A DNA stretch of 64,000 nt from Escherichia coli (GCF_003018255.1 NZ_CP027440.1); one strand, 5' to 3'. Numbered from the stretch's first letter, positions 44,791 through 45,952 are shown. Numbers and translations: made by a program. The notes: a model not told the origin generated them from the letters alone.

Positions 44791-45952
44791 ACGCCACCGT
44801 GTACAGTTGTAAAAAAAAGAGGCACACCCAGATAAGTGTGCCTGCAATCAGAACGTTATCGATGTAATTTCATTATCTCATTAATAAGATTTTTTGAATA
44901 GTAGTTCTACGCAATAGATTAAATATGAAATATTTATTGTGCGGTTTTTCTACAACTCATTTTTAATGCGCGATTTTTTCTACAATGATGTGAAACAAAA
45001 AATATTAAAACCCTGAGTCAAGGAGCGGGGGTGAATGTGTATTACGTCTAATGTTTTAGTGATGTTCAATAGTCTTGATTTATTTAATGTTATTTTTACG
45101 TAAAATAACTTTTTCTGCATATATTATTGATTTTATTTGTTTTTTATGCGTTGCAAAGTAAGGGTGCAGAAAAGAAAAGATCTTTGACGTTAATAGTACT
45201 AATTTACAAATATATCTTATCATAAGATTTTCTTTACTTTTTGGTTGTGAGGAAATCATCGTTCATGGACGCTACCAATAAATTAGAGATGTTCTCTTGA
45301 ATAATTTTTTCTGATTGCAAATCTCAGTTTGTTTGGTTTTTGTTCATTTGTTTAAGTGTATTCCAACACTTTTAATTTTTTGCAAAAACGTACTAACAAT
45401 TTTTTCTTATCAATTGATAATAAATAAAAAATAAAATGTTAGAGAAGCGATAATCTTGTGATAAAAAATATTTAATCATGATGACTGATTAAAGAAGGGT
45501 AAAAATAAATCGCTGCTAATAAATTATACGAACCGTGTTTAAAGCTCCACGTAGTTTTTGGGTCTGACTTATTTTTATACTCGCCACAAGTCCCCTTTTC
45601 GTGCATGATAACCGAATAAATTGACTTTTTTAGCGTAGACCTGATATTACTCCACGCTTTGGGATAAATACGCCCGGCTTACGCAGTTGATCGCTGACCA
45701 CTGCTAACCGGGAGTGGGAAAGAACAAGTAACCCTAGCCAGGAGCACTGGTTGCGTGATTCTTAAGCTGAGTGGCATTACACTTGTGGTTTATCAGCGTA
45801 TCCATAGCACCATCATCCGCCAGATTGAGCGAATCGGCTTAAAGTTTGATGGCGGGACTGCGGATATGAAGCATGAGAGTTACCTCAGTGTTTTATATAA
45901 GGATTCGGTCCTCATAGTAGAACGGTAACTCTCAATCTGATAGGTTCCTGAG

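Follow-up and report, generated by a model that had tools for sequence, protein, structure and literature searches.

A terminator-like hairpin and deeply divergent upstream haplotypes in the AT-rich spacer before the invertase gene fimX of Escherichia coli

In uropathogenic Escherichia coli, FimX is an accessory invertase that turns type 1 fimbriae on, including in ST131 strains that lack fimB, and it also flips the hyxR switch. The fimB region integrates inputs from NanR, NagC, and IHF, and H-NS affects both fimB and fimE. The concept of xenogeneic AT-rich DNA that is silenced by H-NS was reportedly put forward by Navarre and colleagues in 2006. The island that carries fimX, PAI-X, is known from extraintestinal pathogenic E. 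coli (PMC3789825, PMC6083910, and PMC6458436, which cite Bateman & Seed 2012), and its hyxS element is a known promoter switch of hyxR that is inverted by FimX (PMC6083910, PMC6458436). For the STM0716 locus of Salmonella, a phase switch of the T1 antigen cluster that shares the switch inverted repeats is described (PMC11294581). The amount of FimX likely sets the switching rates, and the fimX control region is not described in PMC3789825, PMC6083910, or PMC6458436. The same three papers make no mention of the fimX-betA spacer, of a leader terminator, or of the three haplotypes reported here, although an earlier description elsewhere is possible.

The locus lies in a window of 64,000 nucleotides of E. 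coli (the whole stretch of DNA that was analyzed, from NZ_CP027440.1). On the minus strand of this window, positions 44227-44790 are fimX (= ipbA = hbiF), which encodes a tyrosine-type DNA invertase of 187 aa, and the segment under study is located upstream of it. At the DNA level, it shares 99.9% identity with genes named [quoted passage not shown] in RefSeq, and the protein is 56% identical to FimB and 53% identical to FimE. Downstream of fimX are an AT-rich stretch with inverted repeats and then hyxR, hyxA, and the autotransporter gene hyxB/upaB; the RefSeq annotation of the island genes reads hyxB-hyxA-hyxR-ipbA, beside betA. When K-12 was aligned to the window, its ykgH-betA region matched up to 39781 and again from 45862 onward, which leaves an island of 6.1 kb (39782-45861) that is missing between ykgH and betA in K-12. 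With its insertion between ykgH and betA, its absence from K-12, the gene order fimX-hyxR-hyxA-hyxB, and hyxS found in both orientations, the host island is PAI-X. Since K-12 lacks 39782-45861, the segment at 44791-45560 is the non-coding right arm of PAI-X, reaching from the fimX start codon toward betA. Both the locus and this kind of feature, an AT-rich spacer upstream of a Fim-type invertase gene in a foreign island, are already known. The features of the locus, in window coordinates, are the following:

43923-44228, no strand assigned: hyxS, the FimX-inverted promoter switch of hyxR, with 33-nt inverted-repeat arms at 43923-43955 and 44196-44228.
44791-45075, minus strand: conserved fimX-proximal block, likely the promoter, operator, and leader (from alignments and sliding identity).
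44807-44817, minus strand: inverted third copy of the repeat, TTTTTTTACAA, overlapping the T-run of the terminator-like element.
44811-44843, minus strand: element resembling an intrinsic terminator, with a hairpin at 44820-44843 and a run of eight T at 44811-44818, ending 20 nt before the fimX ATG.
44846-44861, no strand assigned: conserved block 5' of the hairpin, invariant in four haplotypes and presumably functional.
44945-44955, plus strand: direct repeat copy 1, TTTTTCTACAA, of which 10/11 positions are conserved in the other haplotypes.
44975-44985, plus strand: direct repeat copy 2, TTTTTCTACAA, of which only 8-9/11 positions are conserved in the other haplotypes.
45076-45440, no strand assigned: hyper-divergent AT-rich core, with pairwise identity of 56-82% and a trough at 45147-45245.
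45441-45605, no strand assigned: distal reconserved block, 89-97% identical over 45441-45540.
45606-45701, no strand assigned: segment of 96 bp private to the window-type haplotype, with an alignment gap in its place in EC958 and O157.
45856-45861, no strand assigned: right end of PAI-X, with the sequence GGATAT, which recurs at the left end (39776-39781) and is present as a single copy at the empty site of K-12.

The AT-richness of 44791-45560 is clearly non-random, with a GC content of 0.284 versus 0.488 for the whole window and values of 0.23-0.30 throughout a 200-bp profile across the segment. An earlier note on this DNA had claimed strong AT-richness, the lack of any open reading frame (ORF) of at least 60 aa, and horizontal acquisition. 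All of these hold: the GC values agree with the first, the longest ORF in the segment is 59 aa (45080-45259, minus strand), and the segment sits within a 6.1-kb island that K-12 does not have. An ORF-free stretch is, however, to be expected because the DNA is 72% AT. The segment is horizontally acquired and markedly more AT-rich than its host, as H-NS-silenced DNA is, and coating of the spacer by H-NS is plausible from this composition and foreign origin. With up to two mismatches allowed, the TCGATAAATT motif had 77 matches in the window versus 76.5 expected, two of them in the region, and an A-tract phasing check found no 10.5-bp AA/TT periodicity in the region. A plasmid or other outside source for the AT-rich DNA was considered and rejected, the sole matches being mislabelled E. 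coli chromosomes.

Conservation across the segment is highly uneven. In a set of 5,426 complete E. coli genomes, of which ~1,890 carry the island, three core classes cover essentially all carriers: an EC958-type (1008 genomes), an O157-type (797 genomes), and the window-type (86 genomes); Escherichia sp. MOD1-EC7003 has a fourth core allele. Between the window and EC958 or O157:H7, the island genes, hyxS, and fimX are 97-100% identical. Upstream of fimX, identity is 95-98% for the first ~160 bp (to 44948) and ~80% to 45048, a patch at 45036-45075 is conserved across the three E. coli haplotypes and more weakly in MOD1, and around 45050-45340 the window is only 56-72% identical to EC958 (ST131) and O157:H7. 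The core alleles are collinear and homologous, and they differ mainly by substitutions. The 96-bp segment occurs once each in 85 of the 5,426 genomes, and it was rejected as a mobile element on account of its single copy and this limited number of genomes.

The earlier note had also described the segment as regulatory DNA and as a long leader. The first description has support, since the segment lies upstream of a recombinase gene and the part adjoining that gene is conserved, which would be expected of regulatory DNA. The notion of a long leader is misleading: ~500 of the 770 bp are poorly conserved spacer, and in the P0018 sister island only ~185 bp separate a divergent gene from the recombinase gene. 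Therefore, a long spacer is not essential to the unit. The uncorrected difference in the core (0.28-0.44) can be set against dS values of 0.02-0.07 for the island genes and 0.15-0.24 for betB/betA. The deep divergence of the spacer is thus beyond the neutral expectation, and describing it as an unconstrained spacer does not fully explain it.

Directly before fimX, and in the strand of its transcript, a GC-rich stem-loop is immediately followed by a U-tract. The stem has 10 pairs, five of them G-C, and a 4-nt loop, and folding gave a dG of -14.8 kcal/mol with a z-score of -3.6. This conserved hairpin is absent from the earlier note. The terminator-like element is present in 4/4 PAI-X haplotypes (window, EC958, O157, and Escherichia sp. 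MOD1), among which the hairpin has one C->U change in the stem and one change in the loop. The stem change turns C.G into U.G, so that pairing is kept as G.U in the minus-strand RNA only. That the structure is held while its sequence changes, both here and in the sister islands described below, points to a role as a coding-strand hairpin.

Sister islands, retrieved through a protein search and contig look-ups, occupy other genomic contexts than PAI-X and provide a further comparison. The L012 island of E. coli adjoins alsS/budB, also has two regulator-sized genes and an autotransporter, and encodes a recombinase 81% identical to FimX; a 12-bp hairpin with a wholly different stem (CGGGCUGCUCAU/AUGAGUGGCCCG; dG -19.5) and a T-run are found 33 nt before the start. 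In the L017 island, where the recombinase is 83% identical to FimX, a 7-bp stem (GGCACAC/GUGUGCC; dG -13.4), essentially that of fimX, and a T-run are found 35 nt before the ATG. Recombinase genes at 61-64% identity, and fimB, are without the element. When a single genome of each species was screened for relatives of FimX with peptide patterns that proved too strict, the only locus returned was that of Escherichia sp. MOD1-EC7003.

The conserved block 5' of the hairpin contains a match to the IHF consensus, AATCAGAACGTTA, at 44846-44858 (plus strand), which is a predicted site; the same pattern has nine matches in the 64 kb, a second one being inside hyxS (44125-44137). Within the block, GATAACGT is found at 44860-44853 (minus strand), and L017 and L012 likewise have GATAACGT or GATA-CGT upstream of their hairpins. 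The region shows no enrichment of promoter-like hexamer pairs (3 versus 5.3 +/- 2.8 in shuffles), and the conserved block has no good sigma-70 match on the fimX strand. A short similarity, AATCAGAAsGT, flanks fimX at 44210 and 44846.

We consider it fairly probable that the segment is the regulatory and leader region of fimX, made up of an insulating or attenuating terminator followed upstream by a fast-diverging AT-rich spacer. Constraint would then be confined to the 210-280 bp adjoining fimX, where putative promoter and operator sites would be located, and the distal ~500 bp would be AT-rich spacer under little sequence constraint. A Rho-independent terminator on the fimX strand, placed directly before the ribosome-binding region, would stop or attenuate transcription into fimX, whether this originates in the bet operon, at spurious promoters within the AT-rich DNA, or at an upstream promoter of fimX itself. 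The expected outcome would be an invertase that is scarce and insulated from its neighbours, and such scarcity would be in keeping with a role in which the dose of the enzyme governs how often hyxS and fimS switch. The promoter could be placed in two ways: (i) upstream of the hairpin, which would then be an attenuator, or (ii) overlapping the T-run region, which would combine an insulator with a weak promoter. If the only promoter is upstream, fimX would be expressed by read-through. Any promoter within the 20-28 nt after the T-run would match the consensus poorly. Because the gene upstream of the recombinase in the P0018 island is divergent, insulation against read-through is not obviously needed there. 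The conserved terminator 20 nt before fimX and the three differing upstream haplotypes could serve as experimental handles on the frequency of phase variation; apart from these, the segment is an ordinary AT-rich island spacer.

The 11-bp direct repeat to which the earlier note drew attention, TTTTTCTACAA, is present at 44945-44955 and 44975-44985 with a start-to-start distance of 30 bp, as claimed. When the 770 bp were shuffled with dinucleotides preserved, 35% of the shuffles had an exact direct repeat of 11 bp or longer anywhere, and in 5.7% the copies lay within 60 bp; the repeat is thus marginal, only slightly beyond chance. The other three haplotypes compared (EC958, O157:H7, and Escherichia sp. 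MOD1-EC7003) have CTTTTCTACAAG as copy 1 and TTTTATCTAC(A/T)(A/T)T as copy 2, and only the window haplotype has the exact repeat. The conservation in relatives that the note had looked to is accordingly seen for copy 1, which keeps 10/11 positions, but not for copy 2, which is degenerate in three of the four haplotypes. Motif conservation adds nothing in either case, as the whole surrounding block is ~95% conserved. The motif TTTTTYTACAA, which was defined post hoc, has three exact matches in the 64 kb, all within 180 bp upstream of fimX, and RNA of the inverted copy would be complementary to the two upstream copies (a predicted pairing without covariation support).

These TTTTTYTACAA copies could form an operator at which a nucleoid protein or a specific regulator controls fimX, possibly with DNA looping, in which two direct copies would be at -155 and -185 and one inverted copy beside the start. 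The confinement of all three exact matches in the 64 kb to the 180 bp before fimX would fit such an operator, as would the conservation of copy 1 and of the proximal inverted copy in 4/4 haplotypes and a 30-bp spacing that corresponds to about three helical turns. However, the pair is barely unexpected when 5.7% of shuffles have a comparable one no more than 60 bp apart, 3/4 haplotypes have a degenerate copy 2, and the ~95% conservation of the whole block takes the weight from that of single copies. Moreover, the proximal copy is largely the T-run of the terminator, and no copy of the motif precedes the recombinase genes of the sister islands. We know of no regulator with a consensus that matches TTTTTYTACAA. 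An operator of this kind is therefore unlikely, the case for the paired binding sites suggested in the earlier note is weak, the repeat being statistically marginal and only partly conserved, and the 11-bp repeat is probably of little significance.

A small RNA of ~150-250 nt is a second alternative, and here the hairpin takes the central place. The RNA would be encoded in the proximal block, run in the direction of fimX, and end at the terminator, with fimX transcribed only by read-through. A strong, structurally conserved terminator that has 200-280 bp of conserved DNA upstream on the same strand is what such a gene would look like, and the G.U-preserving change in the stem fits a minus-strand RNA. 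The earlier note had raised the possibility of an unannotated small RNA; no Rfam 15 family reached its gathering score, however, and the best match, to IS102, scored 25.8 bits against a threshold of 46 and aligned mainly over the terminator hairpin. The predicted structure of the leader has almost no covariation, no convincing promoter was found, and in the sister islands GATAACGT is all that has been retained upstream of the hairpin. Since only GATAACGT is kept upstream of the sister-island hairpins, there is no conserved RNA body, and we regard the small RNA as quite unlikely.

With 56-82% identity among them versus 97-100% for the flanking island genes, the three deep haplotypes might instead be selected regulatory alleles that set the level of FimX, with the hairpin as a regulated attenuator and not a passive insulator. 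If this were true, the haplotypes would set different levels of FimX, and hence different rates of hyxS and fimS switching, in different E. coli lineages; pairing of the U-tract/ACAA segment with the upstream UUGUAGAAAAA repeats would be conceivable; and how often phase variation occurs would be tuned by natural differences in a non-coding leader. We hold this to be decidedly unlikely. The most economical account is that the spacer is weakly constrained, AT-rich, and indel-prone and that old lineage haplotypes have been kept in it, while the coding part of the island was homogenised by recombination.

Alternatively, the AT-rich DNA could be a decayed gene, for example, a second recombinase gene, as in the pairs fimB-fimE and ipuA-ipuB, and the hairpin could be the old terminator of that gene. 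The fimB terminator does precede fimE, by 84 nt; positions 44943-44960 would encode GFSTTH, the most conserved motif of Fim recombinases; and the EC958 and O157 haplotypes have an ORF of 93-100 aa at the right end of the island that is broken in the window. Yet the tblastn match behind the GFSTTH motif is 15 aa long, with an E-value of ~0.05 against a target of ~3 kb, and its strand is wrong and its position breaks collinearity. The right-end ORF has no Pfam match, and a neutral pseudogene should not out-diverge the synonymous sites of the flanking genes. A gene relic is therefore a most unlikely source of the segment. As to a relic of a recombinase in particular, searching the spacer by tblastn with FimB, FimE, and FimX gave only this non-significant match; we treated it as due to chance and rejected the candidate.

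It is highly improbable that the segment encodes an unannotated small protein, which the earlier note had also suggested. The candidate is the 59-aa ORF on the minus strand (45080-45259), whose N-terminal half is hydrophobic, as in type I toxins. Three of the four haplotypes keep an ORF open in this frame, and a 3-nt indel in O157 preserves the frame. However, the ORF falls in the least conserved part of the region, it has no Pfam match, and the EC958-type haplotype (1008 genomes) has stops in all frames and has lost the start codon. Because the only ORF common to several haplotypes is thus broken in the commonest one, the small protein was rejected.

A second invertible element of the FimX type, whose inversion would turn around either the promoter of fimX or the gene, is largely refuted and extremely improbable. 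Its borders would be either an 11-bp inverted repeat, TGCAATCAGAA (44843-44853 and 45309-45319), or the right arm of hyxS together with a hyxS-like site at 45309-45339. The inverted repeat is perfect, flanks 455 bp, and stands next to a recombinase gene, although in the window haplotype only; 44187-44217 and 45309-45339 match over 31 nt at 74%, and CTGACATTTTGAATCAGAA and CTGAGATTTGCAATCAGAA agree at 16/19 positions, so that the distal arm resembles the right arm of hyxS. This distal arm is not conserved in the EC958, O157, and MOD1 haplotypes. When three synthetic junction queries (a hyxS control and the two hypothetical elements) were run against the 5,426 complete E. coli genomes, the inverted hyxS junction was found in 17 of ~1,890 carriers. 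The two hypothetical inverted junctions were found in 0 of ~1,890 and 0 of ~1,830 island-carrying genomes; only 86 genomes are of the window type, which leaves room for a rare inversion specific to that haplotype. UTI89 and CFT073 are here taken to carry the common haplotype. In a genome-wide survey of both strains under FimX overexpression, the only inversions were those of fimS, hyxS, and ipuS, and FimX-dependent inversion in these strains is described as limited to the three elements (PMC6458436).

A fimX control region with an insulating or attenuating terminator remains our preferred reading, and it can be compared with several known systems. The published PAI-X matches the island in the window in gene content, gene order, ykgH/betA site, and hyxS inverted repeats. 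Within the fim cluster itself, the nanC-fimB spacer (1455 bp, 36% GC) and the fimB-fimE spacer (477 bp, 27% GC) are likewise long stretches of AT-rich non-coding upstream DNA, compared with ~770 bp and 28% GC at fimX. Long AT-rich upstream regions are thus the norm for genes of Fim-family invertases, and the length seen here is unremarkable. No nucleotide homology was detected between the region upstream of fimX and those upstream of fimB or fimE. A strong hairpin with a T-run, the fimB terminator, is found 84 nt upstream of fimE, whereas the distance is 20-28 nt at fimX and fimB has no such element; neither NanR and NagC operators nor any others were identified upstream of fimX.

The Salmonella recombinase STM0716 is orthologous to FimX (72% identity) and has an upstream spacer of 514 bp. 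The homologous position retains the CATCTGA loop motif and the T-run, but the stem is degenerate, no strong terminator is predicted, and the other upstream DNA is unrelated. With xenogeneic DNA that is silenced by H-NS, the segment shares its foreign origin and an AT content ~20 percentage points above that of the genome; simple sequence proxies for H-NS binding gave nothing.

The closest parallel to the hairpin itself is with leader or insulator terminators (attenuators), which likewise place a GC-rich hairpin and a U-tract on the coding strand just before a ribosome-binding site. As in attenuators, the structure at fimX is conserved while its sequence changes. In contrast to attenuators, the fimX leader yielded neither an alternative antiterminator structure nor a leader peptide or ligand-binding fold, and on this comparison the fimX hairpin may act as a constitutive rather than a regulated damper.

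Synonymous divergence among the three lineages was unequal on either side of the AT-rich fimX–betA spacer, reaching 0.15-0.24 in betB/betA (window 45953-49130), 0.02-0.07 in the adjacent island genes (window 42188-44790) and 0.05-0.09 in ykgH. Because the betB/betA values far exceed those of the island genes or ykgH, the sequence comparison implies that the two sides of the spacer had unlike recombination histories. At the island boundaries, a 6-bp direct repeat, GGATAT, was present at both ends of PAI-X (window 39776-39781 and 45856-45861), and the empty site of K-12 carries a single copy. 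Judged from sequence, this arrangement is compatible with a target-site duplication and also with a microhomology deletion.

The right end of PAI-X also differed by haplotype. A 96-bp segment (45606-45701) was exclusive to the window-type haplotype, occurring as a single copy in 85 genomes; within it, + strand positions 45621-45648 resemble a promoter (TTGACT-16-GATATT). In the other two haplotypes, an unannotated ORF of 93-100 aa occupies this end and extends into the betA terminator region:

L003:2262-2543, unannotated ORF at the PAI-X right end of EC958 (equivalent to window ~45560-45930, + strand)
L004:2256-2558, unannotated ORF at the PAI-X right end of O157 (equivalent to window ~45560-45930, + strand)

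The window copy of this ORF is split by the 96-bp segment, leaving 57 aa (45755-45928), and a comparison of the ORF with Pfam returned no match.

The previously known hyxS switch (window 43923-44228) was inverted in 17 of the ~1,890 island-carrying genomes among complete E. coli genomes. A perfect palindrome of 25 bp, CTGACATTTTGA-T-TCAAAATGTCAG (43928-43952), lies within its left site, so that the right arm is matched in both direct and inverted register. Two of the nine matches to the IHF consensus WATCARNNNNTTR in the 64-kb window fell within the fimX locus:

44125-44137, putative IHF site inside hyxS, consensus match
44846-44858, putative IHF site directly upstream of the leader terminator, consensus match

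Within the spacer, the stretch around repeat copy 1 (44943-44960, + strand) would encode GFSTTH in frame, the motif best conserved among Fim recombinases. The stretch is identical at 14 of 18 positions to the fimX coding sequence for GFSTTH on the opposite strand; we judged this reading as a recombinase motif to be coincidental.

PAI-X was decayed in O157:H7 86-24 (L008, equivalent to window 39957-44790), with a frameshift and truncation in fimX/ipbA, internal stops in hyxR and ykgH, and ~1 kb of hyxB deleted (window 40057-41056). In strain ECNB21-M121, the PAI-X right end was reduced to ~150 bp, and betA is bordered on this side by IS1 together with lysis genes of a prophage.

PAI-X-like sister islands, apparently unnamed in the literature surveyed, were found at other chromosomal sites (L012/L013/L014 and L017), adjoining alsD/alsS-like genes in the E. 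coli contigs L012/L013/L014. Each comprises an invertase, a spacer and two genes of ~230-250 aa, with an additional autotransporter gene in L012, and each invertase is FimX-like, with 81-83% identity to FimX.
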